In this document: positions 10,869 through 22,986 of the stretch, piece by piece
How the letters are laid out: every line of letters begins with the position of its first letter
Position numbering within the stretch: position 1 is the stretch's first letter
Assembly (NCBI GenBank): GCA_020634555.1
Contig: JACKBK010000018.1
Span: forward strand, 987-64,986
Origin: Caldilineae bacterium
GTDB lineage: Bacteria; Chloroflexota; Anaerolineae; JAAEKA01
Length of the DNA stretch: 64,000 bases
Direction: 5' to 3'
Program-made: the position numbers and the translations under genes
The notes under the pieces: model-generated
Seen by the model: only the letters and a program-made list of their open reading frames with translations
Told to the model about the DNA's origin: nothing
The model's database searches: none

Positions 10869-12532
10869 TGTCTGGTGACCTGGACCGCGCGCCGGCAACC
10901 GTTGAGGACCTGCGCGATTCAGCCTGGCAGAGTGAGATCGGCCGCCCGCTGCTGATCGCCATCCAGATGACCAGCCTGGTTGCCGGTCCGCTGGCCGTTG
11001 CCATCGCGATCACCGAGGATCCGCGGCTGCGTTTCGTGGCAGCGTTGGCGTTCCTGGCAGCATTGGCCGGAGTTTACAGCCACCAGTGGTTGTCGATGCC
11101 CTCACAGCGAGTGACCCGCAAGACCGCCTTCATGCTGGCCGAGCTGGTCGTGCTGGCACTGGTGCTGCGGGTGGCGACCTGGGCGCTGACCGGTGACTGG
11201 CCAACGGTCGAGACTTTGCGCGACTGGCTGCTGGACCCGTTTTCATTTCTGGACGGCTTCTACTTGATCGCGTTTCTGCTTTCGGCGCTGGCCTGGCAGC
11301 GGGCCGGAATCGTGGCCGAGCTGTTCTACCAACTGGCGCTGACGCCCGGCGAGCTGCGTTGGGTGGAGGAACAGCGACTCGGCTCCTGGTGGCGCGGCAG
11401 CCGCTCGACTGACCGCTCTCAGATATCGCGCCAGGAGATGGTCGATGGCTACATCACCCAATGGCTGATCGGCGGCTTCCTCCTGATCCTGTGTGCCGGC
11501 GCCACACGGGTCAGTATCGACAAGGACGCGGGCCTGCATCTCTTCAGCACCGGAGTCCCTGACCAGGTCATCGTGGCCACGGTCGTTTATTTCCTCACCG
11601 GGCTGCTGATGATCAGCCAGGCGCGGCTGGCGCAGATGCGCGCGCTCTGGTACTTCGACGGCGTTGAAGCGCCGCCGGGCCTGGTAAGCCGCTGGAACCG
11701 GCTAAGCCTTCTGGTCATCGTCGGTGTCGGCCTCGCTGCGTCATTGCTGCCGCTGGGATCTACCTGGCAGTTGGGATCGATCGTCAATCTGGTCGTCACA
11801 GTCGTCATGCAGATCGCGATCGGGATCGTCAGCCTGCTGGTTGCACTGTTCTCGTTGGTGCTGCTGTTGTTTGGAAAGCCGGTGGAGGAATTGCCGCAGC
11901 TTCCGATGACCCCCGCACAGGCGCCGCCACCGCCGCCGCCGGTGCCAACCCTTGATCTGCCAGCCTGGTTGGGCGGCGCAGGAGTCTGGCTGGCGGTGAT
12001 CGTGATGCTGATCCTGGTGCTGCGGTTCTTCATTGGCCCGGAGGGACTGGCGGTTACCAAGAATCGGCTACGCGCGCTGGCGCGACGGATATTCGCGCTG
12101 TTTGGCCGCTGGTGGGCTGGCGCAAAAGCAGCCGCGACCAGCCTGTCGGTGGTTGTACCACGACGGCGCGCTGCGGAAGACACAAAAGGTGGTGGGCTGC
12201 GGCTTCCCTGGCGTTTTGTGCGTCTCAACGCGCTGTCGCCGCGGGACCGCGTGCGCTACTTCTACCTCAGCACAGTCCATCGCGCGGCGAAGCAGGGCGC
12301 TGTTCGCCAGCCCAGCCAGACGCCTGTCGAGTTCCTGCACGATCTTGAGTCTACCTGGCCTGAGGCGGAGATGGACACATCGGCCCTGACGGAAGCATTC
12401 CTGGCCGCTCGCTACGACCGGGTTGAGATCACCCCGGACGACGCACAGGAAACCAAGACCGTCTGGGAGCGCGTCAAACGCGCTTTGAAGCAGCAACACG
12501 CGCCGCCAGACGAGTCAAAGGAGGATTCATAG
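10868..12532 (+). CDS. Polytopic membrane protein with a C-terminal DUF4129-like domain
   Basis: ORF 10367..12532 trimmed to the ATG at 10868, which overlaps the DUF58 stop (TGATG). Multiple hydrophobic segments, a PPPPPP linker, and a C-terminus RVRYFYLSTVHRAAKQG..TPVEFLHDL..AFLAARYDR. Confidence 0.7.
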   Translation: MSGDLDRAPATVEDLRDSAWQSEIGRPLLIAIQMTSLVAGPLAVAIAITEDPRLRFVAALAFLAALAGVYSHQWLSMPSQRVTRKTAFMLAELVVLALVLRVATWALTGDWPTVETLRDWLLDPFSFLDGFYLIAFLLSALAWQRAGIVAELFYQLALTPGELRWVEEQRLGSWWRGSRSTDRSQISRQEMVDGYITQWLIGGFLLILCAGATRVSIDKDAGLHLFSTGVPDQVIVATVVYFLTGLLMISQARLAQMRALWYFDGVEAPPGLVSRWNRLSLLVIVGVGLAASLLPLGSTWQLGSIVNLVVTVVMQIAIGIVSLLVALFSLVLLLFGKPVEELPQLPMTPAQAPPPPPPVPTLDLPAWLGGAGVWLAVIVMLILVLRFFIGPEGLAVTKNRLRALARRIFALFGRWWAGAKAAATSLSVVVPRRRAAEDTKGGGLRLPWRFVRLNALSPRDRVRYFYLSTVHRAAKQGAVRQPSQTPVEFLHDLESTWPEAEMDTSALTEAFLAARYDRVEITPDDAQETKTVWERVKRALKQQHAPPDESKEDS

Positions 12533-12539
12533 AACTGGT

Positions 12540-12776
12540 GTAACTGCTCACCCATCACTCCCGCGAAGCTCCCAATGCCATCACAGACAGCAGGCGCCGT
12601 GGTAAGAGACTTCTTCACTGTCCTTCTGAATGGATCAAACACGCGATCCGCACAAGGCCGAACCGATAATGAAGAATCTCTTCGTGGTCGTTTCTTGGCA
12701 AGCGGGAATCCAAGTCTGCGAGGAGTGGATTCCCGCCTTCGCGGGAATGACGCCACTCTGTCGGCTGAGTGGTTAC
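12540..12776. mobile_element. MITE-like repeat, copy A of the GTAAC-terminus / GTCATTCCCGCGGAG family
   Basis: Outer IR: GTAACTGCTCACCC (12540) / GGCTGAGTGGTTAC (12763-12776). Inner IR: ATCACTCCCGCGAAG (12554) / CTTCGCGGGAATGAC (12737-12751). By eye about 85 percent identical to copy 24703..24914. The ORFs predicted across it (12412..12795, 12575..12838, 12630..12860) are repeat-derived. Confidence 0.75.
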
Positions 12777-12841
12777 GAACCAAATCCCGTATCATTATGT
12801 CTACTAAGCATCATGTGGCGCAAGCGCCAAGGAGGTAACTT

Positions 12842-13798
12842 ATGGACTATGGAGCGTTGATTGGACGGGCCTGGCAGATCACATGGCGCTACAAGGTGCT
12901 GTGGATCTTCGGCATTCTGCTGGCGCTGACGGTCAGCGGCGGCGGAACTGTGGGCAGCGGTGGCGGGAACAGCGGCGGGTCGTCAGCGGCTATGGGATCG
13001 GCTGCGTTCGCTCCGATACTTGCCACCTTTCTGGTGCTCTGCTGCTGCGCGCTGCTGTTCTTCATCGTCGTGGCGGTCATCGTGCAATATGTGGCGCGCA
13101 CCGCGCTCTATCGCGGCGTGGACCAGATCGAGGAAGCGGGCGTTGGGCCGACCTGGCGCGAGGGCTTTCGGCTCGGGTGGAGCAACCGCGCCTTTCGTAT
13201 GTTCTTGCTGGACCTGATCATCGGCGTCGTGTTTGCCTTCGCGGCCATGCTGCTGATCGGGCTGGGCGCTCTGCCGCTGTTGCTGCTGATCTTCGACAAC
13301 GAGGCCGCGCGGATCATCGGAGTGGTGGCGACCGTCGGTCTGGAAATGATGGTCTTCTTCGGCTTGATGGTGGCGGGCGTCCTCATCAGCATCGGCGGCC
13401 AGTTCTGGCGGCGCGAGATCGCACTGGCAAACCGTGACATCGGCGCGGCGCTGAGTAGCGGCGTGGCGTTAGCCCGCAACAGCGCCGGCAACGTCGGCGT
13501 CATGTGGGTGATTCTGACCGCGATCGGCCTTGGGTTCGGCCTGGTGACGGCGATGGTGTTCTTCGCGCTGGGAATCATGGCCTTCGGCGCGGGCGGTGGA
13601 CTGGGATACGCGGTCTATGCGTTGACCGACTCGCCAGCGTTGGCGTTCCTGGTCGGCCTGCCGATCTTCCTGCTGATCACCGTAATACCGATGGCCATCG
13701 TGCGAGGCATCTACCTCGTCTTCGACTCCAGCGCCTGGACGTTGGTCTACCGCGAGGTCGCCGAAAGCGCGATGACGGATCTCGTGCCCGCCGCGTGA
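12842..13798 (+). CDS. Hypothetical polytopic membrane protein
   Basis: 318-aa ORF with a Gly-rich loop (GGGTVGSGGGNSGGSS) and at least 6 hydrophobic helices. No recognisable catalytic motif. Confidence 0.6.
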   Translation: MDYGALIGRAWQITWRYKVLWIFGILLALTVSGGGTVGSGGGNSGGSSAAMGSAAFAPILATFLVLCCCALLFFIVVAVIVQYVARTALYRGVDQIEEAGVGPTWREGFRLGWSNRAFRMFLLDLIIGVVFAFAAMLLIGLGALPLLLLIFDNEAARIIGVVATVGLEMMVFFGLMVAGVLISIGGQFWRREIALANRDIGAALSSGVALARNSAGNVGVMWVILTAIGLGFGLVTAMVFFALGIMAFGAGGGLGYAVYALTDSPALAFLVGLPIFLLITVIPMAIVRGIYLVFDSSAWTLVYREVAESAMTDLVPAA

Positions 13799-13803
13799 CG
13801 GCC

Positions 13804-15954
13804 ATGCCAACTTCTGCTGTGAACCTGACCGGGGCCCAGAGGGCCGTCGGCGCTGCGCCCTTCGACCGCACCATCTTCCTCGATGGGCCGGCCGGCGCGG
13901 GCAAGACCACCGCGGGCGTGCAGCGGCTGCTGAACCTGGTGCAAAGCGGCATCGCGGCCAGCTCGATCCTGGTGATGACGCCGGTGCGGCCGCTGGCCAG
14001 GCCGTACAGCGAGGCGTTGCGGCGCACCCGGCTGCGGCCGGGCAGCATCCCGGCGCTGGTCACCGCAGGCGGCCTGGCGCGGCGCAGTGTCGAGCTGTTC
14101 TGGCCGCTGGTCAGCCGAGAGGCCGGTTTCGCCCAGCCTGACAACCCGCCGGTCTTCCTGACACTGGAGACCGCGCAGTATCACATGGCGAGGATCGTCC
14201 GCCCGCTGCTGGAGGACGGCTACTTCGAGTCGGTGGCCATCGATCGCAACCGCATCTACAGCCAGATCATCGACAACCTCAACAAGGCTGCCGTGGTTGG
14301 CTTTCCATACACGGAGATCGGCGCTCGCTTGCACGGGGCATGGATGGGCGACGAGAGCCAGTTGCGTGTCTACCGCGACGCGCAGGAGTCCGCCAGCCGC
14401 TTCCGCGAGTATTGCCTGGACCACAACCTGCTGGACTTCTCGTTGCAGGTCGAGGTCTTCCGGCGCTATCTCTGGCCGTTGGCCGAGTGCCGCGAGTATC
14501 TGCAAGGCACGTACCGGCACCTGATCGTTGACAACCTGGAGGAGGACACACCCTTTACCCACGACCTGCTGCGCGACTGGCTGCCGCAGGTCGACTCGGC
14601 GCTGCTGATCTACGACCGAGAGGCGGGGTATCGCCAGTTTCTGGGCGCCGACCCGGATAGTGGCGCCGCGCTTAAGGTTCTCTGCACGGACTACGTAACC
14701 TTAAATGAGAGCTTCGTAGCGTCTCCAGCACTGCAAGTATTGGGAGCACACTTGGCGACCGCGCTCCGCCAGCCAGCGCCACCCGCACCGCCTGCCGAGC
14801 CTGCGGCCGTGCGCCAGACACTGCTGTTCGAGGAGAACATGCGCTTCTATCCACAGATGCTGGACTGGGTAGCCGCGCAGATCGTTGATCTGGTAGATGG
14901 CGGCGTCCTGCCGGGCGAGATCGTGGTGCTGGCGCCGTTCCTGTCCGACGCGCTGCGCTTCTCGCTGACCAACCGGCTGGCGCAGGCTGGCATCGCAGCC
15001 CGGTCGCACCGCCCATCGCGCGCGCTGCGGGATGAACCGGCGGCCCGCAGCCTGTTGACGCTGACCTCGCTGGCCCATCCCGACTGGCAGCGCCCACCGG
15101 CGCCGTTTGACGTGTCGTACGCGCTGATGCAGGCCATCGACGGGCTGGATCCGGTGCGCGCTCAACTGCTGACCAAGATCGTCTACCGCACCAAGGAGGG
15201 TTCACCCGGTTTCTCCTCCTTCGAGCAGATCAACCCCGACATGCACGAGCGCATCAGCTACGTGCTGGGCGGCCGGTTTGACACGCTGCGGGTCTGGCTG
15301 GCCGATCTACAACAGCGCCGTTCGCCCGCGACGCTGGACCACTTTCTCAGCCGGCTGTTCGGCGAGGTGCTTTCTCAGGCCGGTTTTGGCTTCCACGACA
15401 ATTTCGACGCGTCGCAGGCCGCGGCCAATCTGGTGGAGTCGGTGCAGAAGTTCCGGCAGGCGGTGGCGGAAGGGGACGGGGAAGAGGGAAGGGAAGGAAA
15501 AGAGAGCGGTGATTTGGGGCGCGAGTATCTGGATATGGTAGAGGACGGCGTGATCGCGGCGCAGTATGTGCGGGGTTGGCAGGAGGTGGATCGCAACGCG
15601 GTGCTGCTGGCGCCTGCCCACACCTTCCTGATGATGAACCGGCCGGTGGACTACCAGTTCTGGCTGGATATCGGCAGCCGCGGCTGGTACGAGCGCCTCT
15701 ATCAACCGTTGACGCACCCATATGTGCTGAGCCGTCACTGGCAGCCCGCCCGGCAGTGGGATCACGACGACGAGGACGCCGCCAACCAGGAGCGACTCTA
15801 CAAGCTGGCGGTCGGGTTGCTGCGCCGATGTCGCAAACAGGTTTTCTTGGGCTTGAGCGAGCTGGGCGAGCAGGGCTACGAACAGCGCGGCCCGCTGCTC
15901 TGGGCGTTCAACCACGTGCTGCGGCAGTTGGCAGTGTCGGAGAAAAGACAATAA
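13804..15954 (+). CDS. UvrD/AddB-like P-loop protein (degenerate helicase-like subunit with no nuclease domain)
   Basis: ORF 13504..15954 trimmed to the ATG at 13804 (MPTSAVNLTG...). Walker A LDGPAGAGKTT and a Walker-B-like HLIVDNLEED. The other SF1 motifs are weak or absent. Contains a purine-rich insert encoding EGDGEEGREGKESG. Confidence 0.65.
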   Translation: MPTSAVNLTGAQRAVGAAPFDRTIFLDGPAGAGKTTAGVQRLLNLVQSGIAASSILVMTPVRPLARPYSEALRRTRLRPGSIPALVTAGGLARRSVELFWPLVSREAGFAQPDNPPVFLTLETAQYHMARIVRPLLEDGYFESVAIDRNRIYSQIIDNLNKAAVVGFPYTEIGARLHGAWMGDESQLRVYRDAQESASRFREYCLDHNLLDFSLQVEVFRRYLWPLAECREYLQGTYRHLIVDNLEEDTPFTHDLLRDWLPQVDSALLIYDREAGYRQFLGADPDSGAALKVLCTDYVTLNESFVASPALQVLGAHLATALRQPAPPAPPAEPAAVRQTLLFEENMRFYPQMLDWVAAQIVDLVDGGVLPGEIVVLAPFLSDALRFSLTNRLAQAGIAARSHRPSRALRDEPAARSLLTLTSLAHPDWQRPPAPFDVSYALMQAIDGLDPVRAQLLTKIVYRTKEGSPGFSSFEQINPDMHERISYVLGGRFDTLRVWLADLQQRRSPATLDHFLSRLFGEVLSQAGFGFHDNFDASQAAANLVESVQKFRQAVAEGDGEEGREGKESGDLGREYLDMVEDGVIAAQYVRGWQEVDRNAVLLAPAHTFLMMNRPVDYQFWLDIGSRGWYERLYQPLTHPYVLSRHWQPARQWDHDDEDAANQERLYKLAVGLLRRCRKQVFLGLSELGEQGYEQRGPLLWAFNHVLRQLAVSEKRQ

Positions 15955-16308
15955 TGACCTCGGTCAACTTTTACATGAACACACTTCGCTGCTGTTCGCC
16001 GCCGCGCAAACTGTGGAGTAGGCATCCTCAGATGCCGGGTCACGACGCCGCGCACAGCCCGGCATCTGCCCACTCCGGAGTGCTTCGCAAAGGATGCTTA
16101 CTCAGCGACGCGAGGTGTCTTGATTGCCAGAAAATCAATTCTTGACACCACACTTCTGACCGAAGTCATGATTTCAGTGAAAACAAATTCTTGATCGGCT
16201 GCAACTGCCGAACCCTGGTTTCACGACTAACCTTAAATGCTTTTTGGGGCCTTCTTCTCATAGTCGTTGAGAGAATGTCGCCCGCAATGGATTTTTGACG
16301 AAACGCTT

Positions 16309-18603
16309 ATGCCACCAGAGTCCTTCATTCCTCGTCCCAAACAAGCCGAAGTGCTGGCCTACACCGGCGGCAAGATGGGCGTTTCGGCGGTGCCGGGCAG
16401 CGGCAAGACCGAAACGTTGTCCCGGCTGGCCGCGCAGCTCATCGCGGGCGGCAGCCTTGCCGGCCATCAGGAAGTGCTGGTGGTGACCCTGGTCAACTCG
16501 GCTGTGGACAACTTCTACCGGCGGGTCAGCAACCTGGTGAAGACGCGCGGGCTGCTGCCCCACGCGGGCTATCGGGTGCGCACGCTGCACGGCCTTTCCC
16601 ACGACATTGTGCGCGAGCGGCCGGCGCTGGTCGGCCTATCGGACAAGTTCGAGATCGTGGACGAGCGCAGCGCGGACGAAATACTGGGCGAGGCGGCCGC
16701 GGCCTGGCTGCGCGGCCATCCGTATACGCTGGAACGCTTCCTCGACCCGGCGCTGGAGTCCAGCAAGCTGGACTGGGTGCGGCGCGACCCACTGCTGGAC
16801 CAGGTCAAGGAGATCGCGCTGGCGTTCACCCGCATGGCCAAAGATCGCCAGTTGGCGCCGGAGCAGGTGCGTGACAAGTTGGATGGGCTGGTCAACCCGC
16901 TGCCGCTGGCCGAGATGGGCTGGGCGATTTACGCCGACTACCAGCGCGCGCTGGCTTACCGCGGCGCGGTGGACTTCGACGACCTGATCCGGCTGGCGCT
17001 GCTGGCGTTGCAGAGCGACGACAAAATGCTGGCCCGGCTGGGCGACCGCTGGCCCTTCGTTTTGGAGGATGAAGCTCAGGACAGCAGCCGCCTGCAGGAA
17101 CAGATTCTGCGCCTGCTCACCGGCCCCGATGGCAACTGGGTGCGGGTCGGCGATCCCAACCAGGCGATCTACGAGACGTTTACCACCGCCAGCCCGGACT
17201 ATCTGCGCGATTTTCTCGACGAAGAGGGTGTTGCCCGGCGGGAACTGCCCAACTCCGGCCGCTCCACCGAGAGCATCATCTGTCTGGCGAACCACCTGGT
17301 GACCTGGACGATGGACGAGCATCCGGTTCATGCGGTGCGTGATGCGCTGTCGCCGCCACCCATCCTGCCCGCGCCACCCGGCGACACGCAGCCCAATCCG
17401 CCCGACGACCCGGCGGCCATCTACTTGATGGGCAACAAGTTCAGCCCCGACGGCGAGTTGCGGGCCGTGGTCGAGTCGCTGGTGCGCTGGCTGCCGGAAC
17501 ACCCGGAAAGCACGGTGGCAGTGCTGACGCCGCGCAACAAGCGCGGCTTCGATGTGGTCGATGCTCTGCGGCAGCGCGATGTTGAGACGGTGGACAGCCT
17601 GCTGCGCAGCTCTACGTCGACCCGCAAGGCTGCCGGCGCACTGGCCAACGTGCTGCACCACCTGGCCGACCCGACCGCGCCGCAGCGGCTCGCCAGGGTC
17701 TTTCAGGTTTGGCGCCGCGCCGACCAGGAGGACCCGGAGGCGTGGCAGCATGTCTTGAAGCTCAGCAAGCTGTTGGCCGGTTGCCGTCAGGTGGAGGAAT
17801 ACGTCTGGCCGAGGGCAGGTCAGGACTGGCTGGCCGAGGCTGATCTCTCCGACGAGGACACGGCGTTGCTGGCGATGTTCCGCGGCGCCATCCAACGCTG
17901 GCAGGGAGCGATCGTGCTGCCGGTGGATCAACTGCTGCTGACGCTGGGCCAGGACCTCTTCACCGAGGCCAGCGACCTGGCGCTGACCCACAAGCTGGCG
18001 GTGACGCTGCGCCAGGCAGCCGAGCAGCATCCGCAGTGGCGCCTGCCGGAGTTGGCCGGCGAGCTGGCGGTCATCGCCCGCAACGAGCGCCGCTTCCTTG
18101 GGTTCAGCGACGAGGACAGCGGTTTTGATCCCAGCGCGTACAAGGGCAAGGTGGTGGTGGCGACGATGCACAAGGCGAAGGGGCTGGAGTGGGACCGGGT
18201 CTACCTGATGTCGGCCAACAGCTATGATTTCCCCTCCGGCCAACCCTACGACCAGTACATCGCCGAGAAATGGTTCGTGCGCGATGAATTGAATCTGGGC
18301 GCGGAGGCGCTGGCACAACTGGAGGCACTGTTGGATAATCAACTCATTTACCGCGAGGGCGATGCTACGGCGCAGGCGCGCCTGGATTACGTTCGCGAGC
18401 GGCTGCGACTGCTGTACGTCGGCATCACCCGGGCGAAGCAGGAACTTGTGGTGACGTGGAATTCTGGGCGTTCAGCAACCAGCAGGCCGGAGGCTGTTCA
18501 GGCGCTGCCCCTTGTTGCGTTGCAAAGCTATTGGGAACTGGGCGGCTGCCGGCAGGACGAGCCAGCGTACGCCGCTGAACCTGTCAAATTCAGGAGTGTT
18601 TGA
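16309..18603 (+). CDS. UvrD/Rep-type SF1 DNA helicase (AddA-like, lacking a RecB nuclease domain)
   Basis: ORF 16267..18603 opens on TTG; the first ATG is at 16309. Motif I AVPGSGKTETL, motif II FVLEDEAQDS, motif III VGDPNQAIY, motifs V/VI VATMHKAKGLEWDRVYL and LLYVGITRAKQEL. Confidence 0.9.
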   Translation: MPPESFIPRPKQAEVLAYTGGKMGVSAVPGSGKTETLSRLAAQLIAGGSLAGHQEVLVVTLVNSAVDNFYRRVSNLVKTRGLLPHAGYRVRTLHGLSHDIVRERPALVGLSDKFEIVDERSADEILGEAAAAWLRGHPYTLERFLDPALESSKLDWVRRDPLLDQVKEIALAFTRMAKDRQLAPEQVRDKLDGLVNPLPLAEMGWAIYADYQRALAYRGAVDFDDLIRLALLALQSDDKMLARLGDRWPFVLEDEAQDSSRLQEQILRLLTGPDGNWVRVGDPNQAIYETFTTASPDYLRDFLDEEGVARRELPNSGRSTESIICLANHLVTWTMDEHPVHAVRDALSPPPILPAPPGDTQPNPPDDPAAIYLMGNKFSPDGELRAVVESLVRWLPEHPESTVAVLTPRNKRGFDVVDALRQRDVETVDSLLRSSTSTRKAAGALANVLHHLADPTAPQRLARVFQVWRRADQEDPEAWQHVLKLSKLLAGCRQVEEYVWPRAGQDWLAEADLSDEDTALLAMFRGAIQRWQGAIVLPVDQLLLTLGQDLFTEASDLALTHKLAVTLRQAAEQHPQWRLPELAGELAVIARNERRFLGFSDEDSGFDPSAYKGKVVVATMHKAKGLEWDRVYLMSANSYDFPSGQPYDQYIAEKWFVRDELNLGAEALAQLEALLDNQLIYREGDATAQARLDYVRERLRLLYVGITRAKQELVVTWNSGRSATSRPEAVQALPLVALQSYWELGGCRQDEPAYAAEPVKFRSV

Positions 18604-19439
18604 TGCCTCTCCCCAGCGATTTTCAGTTCAGCCAGGGCAGTTTGCAGGATTTCGTCGACTGCAAGCGCCGCTTCCAGCTTCGCTACCTGCTCGAGATCGC
18701 CTGGCCGGCTGTGCCGGCCGAGCCATACCTTGAGAACGAGCAGCATCTGCGGCTGGGCGCGCTGTTTCACCTGATGGCGCAGCAGCACGTGCTGGGCGTG
18801 GACGAGGGGCGCTTGACAGCCATGGCGCAGGAGGAGCCGCTGGCCGGCTGGTGGCAGAACTTCCTGCAAGACCGGCCGGCGACGGCGGGCGCGCAGTACC
18901 CGGAGACGGTGCTGTCGATGCCTTTCGGCCAGGCAGCCGAACGCCGGTTGCTGGCGAAGATGGACCTGGTGGTAGTGGACAATGGCAGGGCGACGATCTA
19001 TGACTGGAAGACGTCGCGTCGCCGCCCGCCGCGCGCCTGGCTGGCGGAACGCATGCAGACGCGCGTCTATCCATATCTAATGATTCAGGCGGGAGCGGAG
19101 CTGAACGGCGGCCAGCCGTTCGCGCCCGAACAGGTCGAGATGGTCTATTGGTTCGCCGGTTTCCCCAACCGGCCGGAGCGTTTCAGCTACACGGCGGATC
19201 AGTTTGCAGAGGACGGCGCGTCGCTGGCTGGGCTGCTGGATCAGGCGGCGACGTTGAGCCTGAGCGATGCGCCCTTCCCGCTGACGCCTGACGAGAGCAA
19301 ATGCCGGTTCTGCGTCTATCGCTCGCTGTGCAACCGCGGTGTTGTTGCCGGCGATCTGAACGAGCTGGATTTCGACGACCCCGAACCGGCAGTTGAGTTC
19401 GATCTCGACTTTGAGCAGGTGGCAGAGGTTGAGTATTGA
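18603..19439 (+). CDS. PD-(D/E)XK (RecB/AddB/Cas4-type) nuclease with a 4-Cys Fe-S cluster signature
   Basis: The ATG overlaps the helicase stop (TGATG). Motifs DLVVVDNGRATIYDWKTS (D..D/ExK) and QTRVY (QxxxY). N-terminal Cys (FVDCKRRF) plus C-terminal CRFCVYRSLC (CxxCx5C). Confidence 0.85.
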   Translation: MPLPSDFQFSQGSLQDFVDCKRRFQLRYLLEIAWPAVPAEPYLENEQHLRLGALFHLMAQQHVLGVDEGRLTAMAQEEPLAGWWQNFLQDRPATAGAQYPETVLSMPFGQAAERRLLAKMDLVVVDNGRATIYDWKTSRRRPPRAWLAERMQTRVYPYLMIQAGAELNGGQPFAPEQVEMVYWFAGFPNRPERFSYTADQFAEDGASLAGLLDQAATLSLSDAPFPLTPDESKCRFCVYRSLCNRGVVAGDLNELDFDDPEPAVEFDLDFEQVAEVEY

Positions 19440-19458
19440 GCAAACCGCCGCGGATCCA

Positions 19459-19716
19459 CCGTGAATGAATTCACGGCCTGACACAGAGAAGCATGCTGAA
19501 GCAAGCTGCCGAATTCGGATCTCCGCAGCCTGCTTTGAGCAAGCTTTTCCGCTATCAGACGCCGGATTCATCCGGCGGGATGCCAGCCGCCAGCCGCCGT
19601 GAATGAATTCACGGTCTGACACGGAGAAGCATGCTGAAGCAAGCTGCCGGATATCGGACCGCCGCAGCCTGCTTTGAGCAGGCTTTCCGCTATCAGACGC
19701 CGGATTCATCCGGCGG
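19459..19716 (+). repeat. Two tandem 120-bp REP/BIME-like units (period 138 bp) immediately upstream of the RAYT gene
   Basis: Unit 1 is 19459-19578 and unit 2 is 19597-19716; they are near-identical. Each begins with the hairpin CCGTGAA-TGAA-TTCACGG and also contains AGCCTGC..GCAGGCT and GCCGGA-TTCA-TCCGGC hairpins. Confidence 0.85.
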
Positions 19717-19742
19717 AGCTCTGCAAGAAAGGTATTCCGCTC

Positions 19743-20246
19743 ATGCCATTTTGGCGCTCCTATTACCACATCGTCTGGGCAACCAAGAATCGCGAAGCCT
19801 TGATCCAGCCAGAACTCGAGCCGCGCCTCTTCGCATACATTGTCCGCAAGGCGGCAGAGCTGGACGCTTACATCTACGCGTTAAATGGATGGTTCGATCA
19901 TGTACACCTTGTCACCAGCATCCCTCCAAAGATAGCAGTCTCGCATTTCGTGAAGGATATCAAAGGCTCCAGTTCCCACGACTTGAATCTACAGGGACTT
20001 GAATACAGATTCGCATGGCAGCGTGGATATGGCGTGTTGACCCTCGGCCAAACCCAGCTCGCCAGAGCAATAGCCTATGTCAACGAGCAGAAACAACATC
20101 ATCGCGCCGAGACCGCGATCCCATGGCTAGAGCATTGCTCTGAGATCAACGAAGGCCCGGAGGACCACGGACTCACACGTTCCCACGTACCGGCGCTCAA
20201 GGAAGAGGCGCCGGTGTATAACATACTTGGCGATCCCGCGTTCTGA
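19743..20246 (+). CDS. REP-associated tyrosine transposase (RAYT; IS200/IS605-like Y1 HUH transposase)
   Basis: ORF 19674..20246 trimmed to the ATG at 19743. MPFWRSYYHIVWATKNRE, HUH motif DHVHLV and catalytic-Tyr region AIAYVNEQKQHH. More AT-rich than its neighbours. Confidence 0.85.
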   Translation: MPFWRSYYHIVWATKNREALIQPELEPRLFAYIVRKAAELDAYIYALNGWFDHVHLVTSIPPKIAVSHFVKDIKGSSSHDLNLQGLEYRFAWQRGYGVLTLGQTQLARAIAYVNEQKQHHRAETAIPWLEHCSEINEGPEDHGLTRSHVPALKEEAPVYNILGDPAF

Positions 20247-20255
20247 TCCCGCGCC

Positions 20256-22571
20256 ATGACCTCCTGGCAAGCCCTCCCTTCCATCACCGTTCCCGACGCG
20301 TTGTGCAACGCCGTTGGCGGCCACCCATTGGTGGCGGAACTGCTGGTGCAGCGCGGCATCCGGTCGCCTGACACCGCGCTGGCTTTTCTGGACCCTGATC
20401 GCTATGCCGCGGCGTCTCCGCACGAACTGCCGGATATGGATCGGGGCGTCGAGCGGTTGCAGCGGGCGATGCGCAACGGCCAGCGGATCGGCGTTTGGGG
20501 CGATTTCGACGTGGACGGGCAGACCTCCACGACCTTGCTGGTATCCACGCTCCAGTCACTGGGCGCGGACGTCACATTTCACATCCCGGTGCGCGACCTT
20601 GAGGGGCATGGCGTCACGGTTCCTGCCCTGCAACGTTTCCTCGATCAGGGTGTCGAGCTGGTGCTGACATGCGACACCGGCGTGGCGGCCCACGAGGCTG
20701 TGGCTTACGCAGCTGCCCGCGGCGTCGACTTTGTCATTACCGACCACCACGACCTGCCGGCGATGTTGCCGGATGCGGTCGCCATCATCAACCCGAAGCG
20801 GCTGGTGGGCGGTCACGCATTGGCAAACCTGCCCGGTGTAGGCGTAGCCTACAAGCTGGCCGAAGCTCTATTCACTGCTTTCGGGCGCGCCGGCGAGGAG
20901 ACACAACACCTTGACCTGGCAGCGCTGGGAATCATCGCCGACGTCGCCTTGCTGTCCGGTGACACACGGGCGCTGGCGCAGCGTGGCATCGCTGCGCTGC
21001 GCCAGCCGCAACGATTGGGCTTGCAGGTCATGATGGAATTGGCCGGGGTTAATCCCACCTGGCTGACTGAGGAGCACATCGGATTCGAGCTGGCGCCGCG
21101 GCTCAATGCGCTGGGCCGGCTGGACGATGCTAACCCGGCGGTCGAGTTTCTGACGACCGACGACCTTGGGCGGGCGAGAATCCTGGCTACACAGCTTGAG
21201 GGACTAAACGAGCGGCGCAAGCTGCTAACCGACCAGGTGTTTCGCGGCGTGCTGGCGCAACTGGAACGCGAGCCGGCGCTGCTGGAGTACGCCGCGCTGG
21301 TGCTGGCACATCCGCAGTGGCCGGCGGGCATCATCGGCATCGTTGCCAGCCGCCTGGTCGAACGCTACCGGCGGCCTGTGGTGCTTTTCAGCGCGCCGCC
21401 TGGCGAAGTTGCGCGCGGGTCAGCCCGCTCTGTCGATGGCTGTGACATCAGTGCAGCTATCGCGGCCCAGGCCGATTTGCTGTTCAGCTACGGCGGGCAC
21501 CCGATGGCTGCCGGGCTTTCCCTGCCCGCAGAGCGCATCCCGGAGTTCCGTCGCCGGCTTTCACGGACTGTCGATGAGATGCTCGGTCGGGCAGCGGAGG
21601 CAGAGCCGCTGGCGGTGGATGCCGAACTGCCGCTGGAAGACATGAGCCTGGCGCTGGCGCTGGAGATCGAACGACTGGCGCCCTTCGGAGCGGGCAACCC
21701 TGCGCCTGTGCTGGTCAGCCGGAATCACTCGCTATCCAGCAGCCGGACCGTTGGAAGGTACAGCGATCATCGTATCCTCGATCTTGAAGATGAAGCGGGC
21801 AACGTGCAGCGCGTGTTCTGGTGGCAGGGAGCAGGCTGGCCGCTGCCGCAAGGCCGTTTCGATCTGGCCTACCGTGTGCGCGCCAGCACCTACCGTGGCC
21901 AGCGCGCCGTTCAGTTTGAGTGGGTGGATGCACAGCCGGTGGTGGAGGGCGCCGCCGAGCTCAGCGCTCCCACCTTGCAGGTCCTCGATTGGCGGGCCGC
22001 GGCCGATCCACAGGCCAGCCTGTCTGAGTTGCGGCACACAGGCGACGTGATTGTCTGGGCCGAGGCCAGCCAACGCCGCCAGGTCAGCGGAGCGGACCGA
22101 ACACAACTGGAAAGCGCCATGACGCTGGTCGTCTGGACTGCGCCGGCCAGCCGCACCGATCTGTTGACGGCGCTGGAGCGGGTGCAGCCGCGGCAGGTCG
22201 TTTTGGTCGGCGTCGATCCGCAACTGGACGGGATGGAAGCGTTTCTGGCGCGGCTGGCCGGCTTGATCAAGCCGGTGTTGGCCAGCGACGGAGCGGTTTC
22301 GCTGGGTTTCCTGGCCGCAGCCATGGCTCAGCGCGAGGTGACGGTGCGCGCCGGGCTGCGCTGGCTGACTGAGCGGGGCCACCTTCGGATTCTCGAGGAG
22401 AGCGGTGATCGCCTTCAGCTTGCCCGCGGGGACGGCGTGACGTCCGGTGGCCTGGCCGCGGCCGCGGCTGATCTGCAAGCCCTGCTGAACGAGACAGCAG
22501 CCTATCGCCGTTTCTTTGCCCGCGCGGAACCGGCCTCGATCCTACCAGGAGTTAAAGCCCATGGACGTTGA
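20256..22571 (+). CDS. recJ: Single-stranded-DNA-specific exonuclease RecJ
   Basis: 771-aa ORF. DHH-family motifs IGVWGDFDVDGQTS, TCDTG and FVITDHHD, plus the DHHA1 region GGHPMAAG. Confidence 0.9.
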   Translation: MTSWQALPSITVPDALCNAVGGHPLVAELLVQRGIRSPDTALAFLDPDRYAAASPHELPDMDRGVERLQRAMRNGQRIGVWGDFDVDGQTSTTLLVSTLQSLGADVTFHIPVRDLEGHGVTVPALQRFLDQGVELVLTCDTGVAAHEAVAYAAARGVDFVITDHHDLPAMLPDAVAIINPKRLVGGHALANLPGVGVAYKLAEALFTAFGRAGEETQHLDLAALGIIADVALLSGDTRALAQRGIAALRQPQRLGLQVMMELAGVNPTWLTEEHIGFELAPRLNALGRLDDANPAVEFLTTDDLGRARILATQLEGLNERRKLLTDQVFRGVLAQLEREPALLEYAALVLAHPQWPAGIIGIVASRLVERYRRPVVLFSAPPGEVARGSARSVDGCDISAAIAAQADLLFSYGGHPMAAGLSLPAERIPEFRRRLSRTVDEMLGRAAEAEPLAVDAELPLEDMSLALALEIERLAPFGAGNPAPVLVSRNHSLSSSRTVGRYSDHRILDLEDEAGNVQRVFWWQGAGWPLPQGRFDLAYRVRASTYRGQRAVQFEWVDAQPVVEGAAELSAPTLQVLDWRAAADPQASLSELRHTGDVIVWAEASQRRQVSGADRTQLESAMTLVVWTAPASRTDLLTALERVQPRQVVLVGVDPQLDGMEAFLARLAGLIKPVLASDGAVSLGFLAAAMAQREVTVRAGLRWLTERGHLRILEESGDRLQLARGDGVTSGGLAAAAADLQALLNETAAYRRFFARAEPASILPGVKAHGR

Positions 22572-22986
22572 GATGGAAGTGATGGAGATCGTACACCGCA
22601 ACCTGCAAGCGATCTGGGATGCTGACCCGGACGCCTACAGTGAGACGTGCGCGCCCGACGTTTCCTTCTTCGAGTGGTATGTCACCACGCAGCGCATCGA
22701 CGGCATCGATTTTCACCTGCGCGAGATCCTGGTGCATGCCGGGGCGCTAGGCGGCAGCAGCGGCGCCCGCACGGAGCATGAAATCCTCCAGCCGCGGGTG
22801 CAGGTGTTCGGCGACACAGCAGTTGTCACCTACACGCTGCTGGTGCGATCCGTTCGCGATGGCGCCGTCAGCCGTACGCAGCAGAACGAGACGCGCGTCC
22901 TGCACCGCTTCGACGACGGCTGGAAACTGGTGCATTGCCACAAATCTCCCTGCTGGCGCGCACCCCACGACCCACCTGTGAGGTAA
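22561..22986 (+). CDS. SnoaL-like / DUF4440 (NTF2-fold) protein
   Basis: ORF 22516..22986 trimmed to the ATG at 22561; 22573 is also possible. The C-terminal pattern ..TRVLHRFDDGWKLVHCH is typical of the DUF4440/CaMKII-association fold. Confidence 0.6.
   Translation: MDVEMEVMEIVHRNLQAIWDADPDAYSETCAPDVSFFEWYVTTQRIDGIDFHLREILVHAGALGGSSGARTEHEILQPRVQVFGDTAVVTYTLLVRSVRDGAVSRTQQNETRVLHRFDDGWKLVHCHKSPCWRAPHDPPVR

Follow-up and report, generated by a model that had tools for sequence, protein, structure and literature searches.

The committed step of recombinational repair is end resection, which bacteria are thought to carry out with RecBCD, AddAB, AdnAB or a RecQ/UvrD helicase combined with RecJ. 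A 64,000-nucleotide (nt) stretch of a Caldilineae bacterium (Chloroflexota; Anaerolineae; GenBank assembly GCA_020634555.1, contig JACKBK010000018.1, positions 987 to 64,986; hereafter, the window) raises the question of how its genes relate to these machines. Three co-oriented genes within it, here called g1, g2 and g3, encode a degenerate UvrD-like protein, a UvrD-type helicase and a nuclease, and a recJ gene lies downstream. An earlier note, made from the letters alone, had placed the three genes where our open reading frame (ORF) listing and translations also put them, and had read them as an AddAB enzyme in which AddB was split into two genes flanking addA and AddA had lost its nuclease. 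Is the locus an AddAB in pieces, or something else? The comparisons reported here indicate a separate, old system and not the AddAB of the class taken apart, most likely an undescribed variant of the known end-processing machines, built from separate parts and with one AddAB-type nuclease. Specifically, we give a probability of about 0.6 to the reading that the four proteins form an Anaerolineae module that acts together in recombinational repair, where it would convert DNA ends, or different 5'-strand substrates, to 3' single-stranded DNA (ssDNA) tails. New here are the counts of coexistence with AddAB, the greater nearness of g1 to UvrD than to AddB, and the nature of the linked RecJ as a paralogue.

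Conservation of the four-gene cluster

The g1-g2-g3-recJ cluster is a conserved, unnamed module of the Anaerolineae. Searches by tblastn with the window proteins showed that the gene order recurs in 80 related species-level loci (L007-L086) of different Chloroflexota species and, thus, that the layout is not due to chance. Whether the three genes keep company in other genomes had been left by the earlier note as a point to check, and they do: g2 comes after g1 in all 66 loci with room for it, and g3 turns up no more than 10 kb downstream in 54 of 61. Further, recJ follows in 39 of 55 loci. The median gaps at the g1-g2, g2-g3 and g3-recJ junctions are 17, 17.5 and 26 nt, respectively, with many overlaps. 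Among 25 relatives that were searched for g1 (drawn from 40 genomes, each at least 90% complete, that we scanned with the PDDEXK_1 model in a survey of AddAB), a g3-like nuclease was present in 11 of the 13 with g1 and in none of the 12 without it.

The module is widespread within the class and, among Chloroflexota, largely confined to it. When the phylum was sampled evenly, 28 of 29 Anaerolineae had g1, a single-copy gene, as did 2 of ~220 other Chloroflexota. The closest homologues and the 80 loci carry Chloroflexota labels almost throughout (mostly Anaerolineae, Anaerolineales or Caldilineales), the exceptions in the contig scan and among the best 150 representatives being a short contig with Arcobacter as its title and a cluster member assigned to Acidimicrobiales. 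A word-indexed search returned more than 5,000 proteins of the g1 family, relatives of which are encoded in at least 582 stretches of a species-representative genome collection. These proteins make up 594 clusters at 50% identity (E <=1e-30), nearly all of them full length, and the full-length entries among the best 150 of the 594 measure ~660-775 amino acids (aa). All of the named family members that we looked up are annotated "hypothetical protein", and our literature searches found no description of a g1-g2-g3-recJ module.

The recJ gene of the cluster appears to be a fourth, dedicated component rather than an incidental neighbour, because a long RecJ paralogue is tied to module-bearing genomes and forms a clade of its own. 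The source genome has two RecJ genes, the long one of the window and a short one on another contig (C62, L098). Across 28 relatives, long RecJ was found in 14 of 15 module-bearing genomes and in 0 of 13 module-free ones; a short (~570-640 aa) and a long (~760-850 aa) form occur together in 13 of the 15 genomes with the module, one (G126) has the long form only, and all 13 module-free genomes have the short form only. In a maximum-likelihood tree, long and short RecJ split at 100/100 support, and long copies situated away from the module group with the module-linked ones. Downstream of the DHH, DHHA1 and RecJ_OB domains, the long form has a conserved C-terminal extension of ~210 aa without a Pfam match. 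Its catalytic DHH and DHHA1 motifs are all intact, and residues D83, D85, D140, D163-H164-H165, D229 and G413-G414-H415 are invariant in 35 orthologues. The linked gene is thus a distinct long paralogue of the housekeeping RecJ, and the connection to recJ that had been suspected across a transposase insertion turned out to be stronger than first noted.

Pseudo-helicase, presumed motor and iron-staple nuclease

The first protein of the module, g1, retains the Walker A motif of a UvrD-family helicase and little else, in keeping with its first description as degenerate and free of a nuclease domain. Walker A (GPAGAGKT) occupies residues 28-35, with K34 intact, and is followed by VDNLEED at residues 242-248. 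Profile alignment by hhalign sets the D243-N244 pair at motif II, where the catalytic Asp-Glu is expected, with the Asn lying on the catalytic Glu of g2; in the same register, g1 has neither the Gln of motif III nor the Arg of motif IV. Pfam gave a single borderline match, to the N-terminal UvrD-helicase model (PF00580; 22.6 bits against a cut-off of 23), and no nuclease domain, while NCBIfam gave no AddB match and no other relevant one. Across 73 orthologues, N244, G28, G31, G33 and T35 are invariant and K34 is kept in at least 90%. The 73 orthologues, which are 55-93% identical to g1, share ~100 invariant columns, including a family-specific block outside the motifs (SHRPSRALR), a pattern that points to strong constraint on g1.

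Searches of the Protein Data Bank (PDB) by sequence gave little for two of the three proteins, so predicted folds were needed. Specifically, g1 returned P-loop matches only, as a single sequence and as a profile, whereas g3 returned nothing useful alone and only weak ACE1 matches as a profile. The AlphaFold2 model of g1 (predicted local distance difference test [pLDDT], 90; predicted template modelling score, 0.87) has a complete four-subdomain superfamily 1A (SF1A) helicase fold, and Foldseek matched it to complete SF1A helicases across ~730-750 columns. UvrD, PcrA and Rep lead by E-value (2e-20), above AddB; the AdnB motor is first by template modelling (TM) score (0.64-0.66), followed by AddB (E 5.5e-16, TM 0.57-0.60), RecB and AddA. 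One part of g1 looks variable: a purine-rich stretch at ~15466-15504 encodes EGDGEEGREGKES (residues ~555-567), for which the alignment consensus has no majority residue. Model confidence dips nearby, with 10-residue block means of 61-76 around residues 551-570, and the blocks covering 581-600 are also low, at 67.

The second protein, g2, has all seven SF1A motifs, including I (VPGSGKT), II (LEDEAQD), III (VGDPNQAIYETF), IV (NSGRST), V (TMHKAKGLEWD) and VI (VGITRAK), and the core motif residues are invariant over 60 orthologues. It conforms to the UvrD/Rep/PcrA family, matching Pfam UvrD-helicase (PF00580; 1.8e-40, 139.8 bits) and UvrD_C (PF13361; 1.2e-18, 68.1 bits), and its sequence matches in the PDB are UvrD, Rep, PcrA and AddA. 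No PD-(D/E)XK domain was detected in it by Pfam, with matches stopping at residue 719 of 764. The prior account of g2 as a motif-complete helicase lacking a nuclease thus holds; the length of 765 aa given with it does not, as we find 764 aa.

The third protein, g3, fits its earlier portrayal as a stand-alone PD-(D/E)XK nuclease with iron-sulphur (Fe-S) cysteines, the ATG of which lies across the g2 stop (TGATG, 18601-18605). It matches Pfam PDDEXK_1 (PF12705) over profile positions 1-247 of 247 (3e-27; 96.6 bits against a cut-off of 22), and its key residues are C20, D121, D134-W-K136, Q152xxxY156 and C234xxC237x5C243, all of which are invariant in 54 orthologues except for D134 (>=90%). Foldseek searches with its AlphaFold2 model (pLDDT 88) placed Argonaute-associated Cas4-family proteins (ACE1/Cas4) first by E-value and the nuclease domain of AdnA, an Fe-S domain that cuts the 5' strand, first by TM-score (0.62-0.64; root-mean-square deviation, 4.2), with Cas4, Exo5, Dna2 and AddB following. 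By hhalign, g3 aligns with the C-terminal nuclease of Anaerolineae AddB at an E-value of 4.1e-7 over 228 columns that include all four Cys, whereas its profile gave no alignment to the AddA nuclease (probability, 8%). Together, these features place g3, as judged by sequence and predicted fold, in the AddB/AdnA/Cas4 iron-staple class. The fold and profile comparisons that had been proposed as a check thus matched both g1 and g3 to AddB and AdnAB, g1 to RecB and AddA as well, and g3 to Cas4.

Proposed function and competing readings

How might the four proteins share the work? The analogy of AddA, AdnB and RecB suggests that g2 is an ATP-driven SF1A motor moving 3'-5' on the 3'-ended strand, and g1 would be a nucleotide-binding, non-hydrolysing, non-motor scaffold, equivalent to the helicase-like portion of AddB, AdnA or RecC. 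As an active iron-staple nuclease of the AddB/AdnA/Cas4/Dna2 type, g3 would cut the displaced 5'-ended strand, and long RecJ would digest that same strand processively in the 5'-3' direction. Because none of its subunits has a nuclease of the AddA/RecB type to act on the 3' strand, the module would yield 3' tails directly and would need no Chi-type switch. What we observed are the domain content, the motif states, the predicted folds, the synteny, the co-occurrence and the coexistence with AddAB; that the proteins form a complex, with which strand polarity, independently of Chi and in repair, is what we infer.

Several points weigh against this reading. First, the case that the proteins associate physically consists of operon structure and co-occurrence, and the neighbourhood lacks g3 in 7 of 61 loci and recJ in 16 of 55. 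Second, the AddB-like scaffold role proposed for g1 is an analogy, because g1 resembles ordinary UvrD at least as closely as it does AddB. Third, many relatives also carry canonical AddAB, so the substrate of the module may differ from double-strand ends. Finally, the window has no LexA-type box 5' of g1, and a near-match LexA site in the g1-g2 spacer (16210-16221) is at chance level and is not conserved.

The third point leads to the alternative that survives best, which we regard as a serious if minority possibility: that the four proteins cooperate on a substrate other than an end, such as stalled or reversed forks, post-replicative gaps, flaps or blocked 5' ends, or mismatch-repair excision tracts, and complement AddAB. 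In known systems, RecJ serves in gap and fork processing as well as in end resection. The coexistence of the module with canonical AddAB in many relatives and its possession of a RecJ paralogue of its own speak for this alternative, as does the cooperation of UvrD-type helicases with RecJ in the break repair of Deinococcus, according to PMC2806897. However, the pairing of a pseudo-helicase with an Fe-S nuclease is so far known only from the end-resection machines AddAB and AdnAB and from Dna2, and no sequence feature tells these substrates apart.

The favoured reading, a resection module, borrows from more than one known system. Its closest relation in logic is AddAB, for which we took the Bacillus subtilis type (RexAB; PDB 3U44/3U4Q/4CEH-4CEJ) as the reference. 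Of the helicase motifs, B. subtilis AddB has kept motif I and a nearby Asp only, and Chi recognition is stabilised there by the binding of a nucleotide (PMC3321194). The module likewise sets a live SF1A motor beside an inactivated UvrD-like partner, g1, that keeps Walker A and the nearby Asp only, and it has a PD-(D/E)XK nuclease, g3, stapled by one N-terminal and three C-terminal Cys (CxxCx5C), with the D...D/ExK and QxxxY motifs of the class. Unlike in AddAB, the Fe-S nuclease is a free 278-aa protein and not part of one polypeptide with the helicase-like domain, the motor g2 is not fused to a C-terminal RecB-type nuclease, and g1 has no specific sequence affinity to AddB past the common fold. 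The module further differs in its dedicated RecJ paralogue and in coexisting with a true AddAB in many genomes, and nothing in it points to Chi recognition. The AddAB/AdnAB-like logic that was first recognized in the locus has nevertheless stood up, in that a live SF1A motor, a decayed partner and an iron-staple nuclease that matches AddB and not the AddA nuclease are all present.

Mycobacterial AdnAB (PDB 6PPR, 6PPU, 7SJR, 9NP6) gave the best TM-scores for both models and, as in the module, combines a lead motor with a secondary motor-like subunit; in AdnAB, the latter bears the Fe-S nuclease. However, AdnAB has a motor fused to a nuclease in each subunit, and Walker B is retained in AdnA (PMC3321194). 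In contrast, the module has one unfused nuclease, and its second subunit has Asp-Asn at motif II and, thus, no Walker B Glu. The RecQ/UvrD-RecJ route of the RecF pathway and the Sgs1/BLM-Dna2 pair resemble the module in that a helicase unwinds while a 5'-strand nuclease degrades, with neither a 3'-strand nuclease nor Chi. They differ in having no pseudo-helicase subunit, whereas the module has one, together with both an iron-staple nuclease and a RecJ paralogue. In bacteria, moreover, a helicase and recJ do not usually share an operon. Dna2 belongs to the same iron-staple nuclease class (PMC3321194). The nearest mention in the literature is of a set of operons, mostly in Clostridiales, in which a UvrD-like gene adjoins an unfused gene for a pfam12705 nuclease in surroundings unrelated to defence and for which repair was suggested (Hudaiberdiev et al. 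2017, PMC5704561); as described, these are two-gene links with no pseudo-helicase or RecJ paralogue reported. With regard to RecBCD, the source genome (75% complete) yielded no RecB-size UvrD-helicase/PDDEXK_1 protein; the search did not extend to RecC. A single SF1B helicase was detected in that genome, a 763-aa RecD2-type protein (HHH_RecD2, OB_YrrC, SH3_13) without RecB or RecC partners, encoded on a contig (C49; L006 481-2772) other than that of the module.

We propose, tentatively and with less confidence than for a shared role in repair, that the module represents a fourth architectural class of bacterial end-resection machine beside RecBCD, AddAB and AdnAB, in which a live UvrD-type motor is joined by a UvrD paralogue that lost its activity independently, a free iron-staple nuclease and a long RecJ. 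Such a machine would act on the 5' strand only and without a Chi-like signal, in parallel to AddAB where both exist and as the sole machine in lineages like that of the source genome. If so, it would offer a natural Chi-independent design that combines AddAB-style parts with its own RecJ and dispenses with a 3'-strand nuclease, and a class-wide module that mixes both logics would show how resection machines assemble and re-assemble in evolution. With its nuclease and scaffold as separate proteins, it would also be easy to dissect.

The reading with which the locus was first approached now seems unlikely, namely that the module is a disassembled AddAB, with AddB having become g1 and g3 and AddA, minus its nuclease, having become g2, and that it replaces AddAB in the lineage. 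Canonical addB-addA pairs from Anaerolineae relatives (AddB, ~1020-1140 aa; AddA, ~1100-1160 aa; best NCBIfam matches AddB and AddA) served for comparison. In hhalign, g1 (24-600) is collinear with AddB (56-635) at an E-value of 4.6e-7, g3 aligns with AddB 821-1099, and g2 aligns with the helicase part of AddA at 2.5e-32 over 661 columns, all as a split would have it. However, g1 aligns better with the UvrD/PcrA of its own genome (2.6e-11) than with AddB, and Foldseek ranks it in the same way; its alignment with AddA (7.7e-8) covers a shorter stretch. Similarly, g2 is nearer to UvrD than to AddA in BLASTP (69 versus 46 bits) and in NCBIfam, where it scores 76 bits on TIGR02785 (addA_Gpos) against a cut-off of 708 and higher on the UvrD/Rep/PcrA models. 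The gene order also places g2 between g1 and g3, and no protein of a length that a g1-nuclease fusion would have occurs among the best 150 of the 594 g1 clusters, leaving out a 1419-aa entry that matches g1 by its C-terminal part only. A 973-aa open frame considered as a g1 fusion (G029) holds a g1 of ordinary length, the tblastn match being confined to its last ~690 residues. Thus, g1 and g2 appear to be divergent UvrD-family proteins for which no specific AddB or AddA ancestry can be demonstrated.

The distribution of canonical AddAB bears on the same question. Its absence, which would have agreed with replacement by the module, is seen in part: the source assembly (92 contigs, 75% complete) yielded no AddA, AddB or RecB-size protein, and at least 9 of 11 near-complete genomes of the source genome's family lack an AddA- or AddB-size protein. 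The family exceptions are one genome with an AddB-like gene on a short contig (G002, 7% contaminated) and one with a UvrD-Cas4 fusion rather than an AddAB pair (G009). In the wider survey, however, 13 genomes encode a protein of canonical AddB size, in most cases next to AddA, and 12 of these 13 also carry g1. For example, addB-addA and g1-g2-g3-recJ are located on different contigs of a 100% complete genome (G017), and a second genome (G039) is similar. The splitting of AddB and the loss of the AddA nuclease are, therefore, not supported: because canonical addB-addA coexists with the module in 12 of 13 AddAB-bearing relatives, and because g1 and g2 are nearer to UvrD, we regard the module as apparently separate from AddAB.

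It is very improbable that the genes are co-transcribed but independent, forming no complex, with g1 a decaying relic; g1 has indeed lost catalytic residues, but its ~100 invariant columns over 73 orthologues, its 594 nearly all full-length clusters and its tight (66/66) and often overlapping association with g2 argue otherwise. Least probable of all is an anti-phage or anti-plasmid helicase-nuclease defence akin to UvrD-Cas4 fusions, Gabija or Hachiman, which the earlier note had mentioned: PADLOC matched g2 to GajB models and g3 to Cas4 models, UvrD-Cas4 fusions are linked to defence loci (PMC5704561) and the top Foldseek E-values of g3 are Argonaute-associated proteins, but these PADLOC matches amount to generic UvrD and Cas4 similarity with no GajA, HamA or Argonaute partner, no OLD/TOPRIM protein (as in Gabija) occurs among the neighbours, g3 falls below the Cas4 cut-offs (TIGR00372, 23.7 bits against 65; PF01930, 18.1 against 22.7) with no cas genes noticed in the neighbourhood, and the module is probably not a defence system because it is single-copy and class-wide (28/29 sampled Anaerolineae), unlike patchy defence islands, has MoxR/DUF58/DUF4129/DUF7544, RecJ and TolB-like genes and no noticed defence genes as neighbours, is linked to a RecJ paralogue and has LexA-type boxes in some lineages.

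Two other Cas4-related genes came to light in these scans. The UvrD-Cas4 fusion of G009 (977 aa) adjoins a 1474-aa sacsin-like P-loop ATPase (L092, G009:C76, 2413-9809), a pair that is probably of defence type and unrelated to the module. Further, a small solo Cas4-like ORF (~178-260 aa; in the source genome on contig C37, 4904-5290) was met again in most of the relatives that we scanned, where it matches part of PDDEXK_1 at E-values of 1e-6 to 1e-12, and may be the "solo-Cas4 of many Chloroflexi" of PMC5704561.

Layout, junctions and regulation

The features of the locus are collected in the table. The last of the MoxR/DUF58/DUF4129/DUF7544-type genes 5' of g1 ends 5 nt before it, and a TolB-like gene is also among the neighbours of the module.

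Table. Positions of the module genes and of the elements between them, in window coordinates.
Feature	Position	Strand	Length	Description
g1	13804-15954	+	716 aa	degenerate UvrD-family (SF1A) pseudo-helicase; from ORF listing and translation
g1-g2 spacer	15955-16308	+	354 nt	
g2	16309-18603	+	764 aa, from the ATG common to close relatives	UvrD-type SF1A helicase
g3	18603-19439	+	278 aa	stand-alone PD-(D/E)XK nuclease with four-Cys iron staple
REP-like units	19456-19716	+	138 bp each	two, in tandem, hairpin-rich
RAYT	19743-20246	+	167 aa	IS200-like Y1 transposase gene; Pfam PF01797, 5.6e-26
recJ	20256-22571	+	771 aa	long paralogue; Pfam DHH, DHHA1, RecJ_OB

A distance of 816 nt separates the end of g3 from the start of recJ. 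A block consisting of repetitive extragenic palindromic (REP)-like units and a REP-associated tyrosine transposase (RAYT) gene sits exactly between the two genes and ends 9 nt before recJ. Each of the two REP-like units has several hairpins. In the closest relative with recJ in view (L008), no insertion is present and the g3 end and the recJ match start lie a few nt apart, so the block is specific to this lineage, inserted where g3 and recJ meet. No credible RNA emerged from a search of 12400-22700 with Rfam, a range that covers both the spacer and the insertion; a match of the REP units to a plant microRNA family (E 0.06) was treated as chance.

The length of the g1-g2 spacer is likewise unusual and is common only to the two closest relatives (L007 12158-12526 and L008 12179-12549), both of which keep a block at ~16229-16285. 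In L008, an additional miniature inverted-repeat transposable element of ~200 nt lies between this conserved block and the g2 start. The spacer of the window also contains palindromes that resemble TGACC-N-GGTCA, at 15954-15967 and 16157-16168. The last codons of g1 coincide with a promoter-like site (15928-15955), and no terminator-like site was found on the + strand in the gaps between module genes.

With regard to regulation, GAAC-N4-GTTC with <=1 mismatch occurs in the window at chance frequency. A relaxed LexA-like box (G-N-AC-N4-GT-N-C) is enriched 5' of g1 in other lineages, at 7 of 73 loci versus 13 of 591 coding control windows, with GAACACTTGTGC, GAACATTTGTAC (overlapping TATAAT), GTACAATTGTTC and GCACAAATGTTC as examples. 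Such boxes precede g1 by 1-112 nt in some lineages (L031, L049, L056, L038, L021 and L070), which would fit SOS control in part of the class. Finally, gaps of >300 nt are frequent across the 80 loci, at 18 of 73 g1-g2, 15 of 56 g2-g3 and 10 of 43 g3-recJ junctions, which suggests that small mobile elements often land between module genes without breaking up the cluster.

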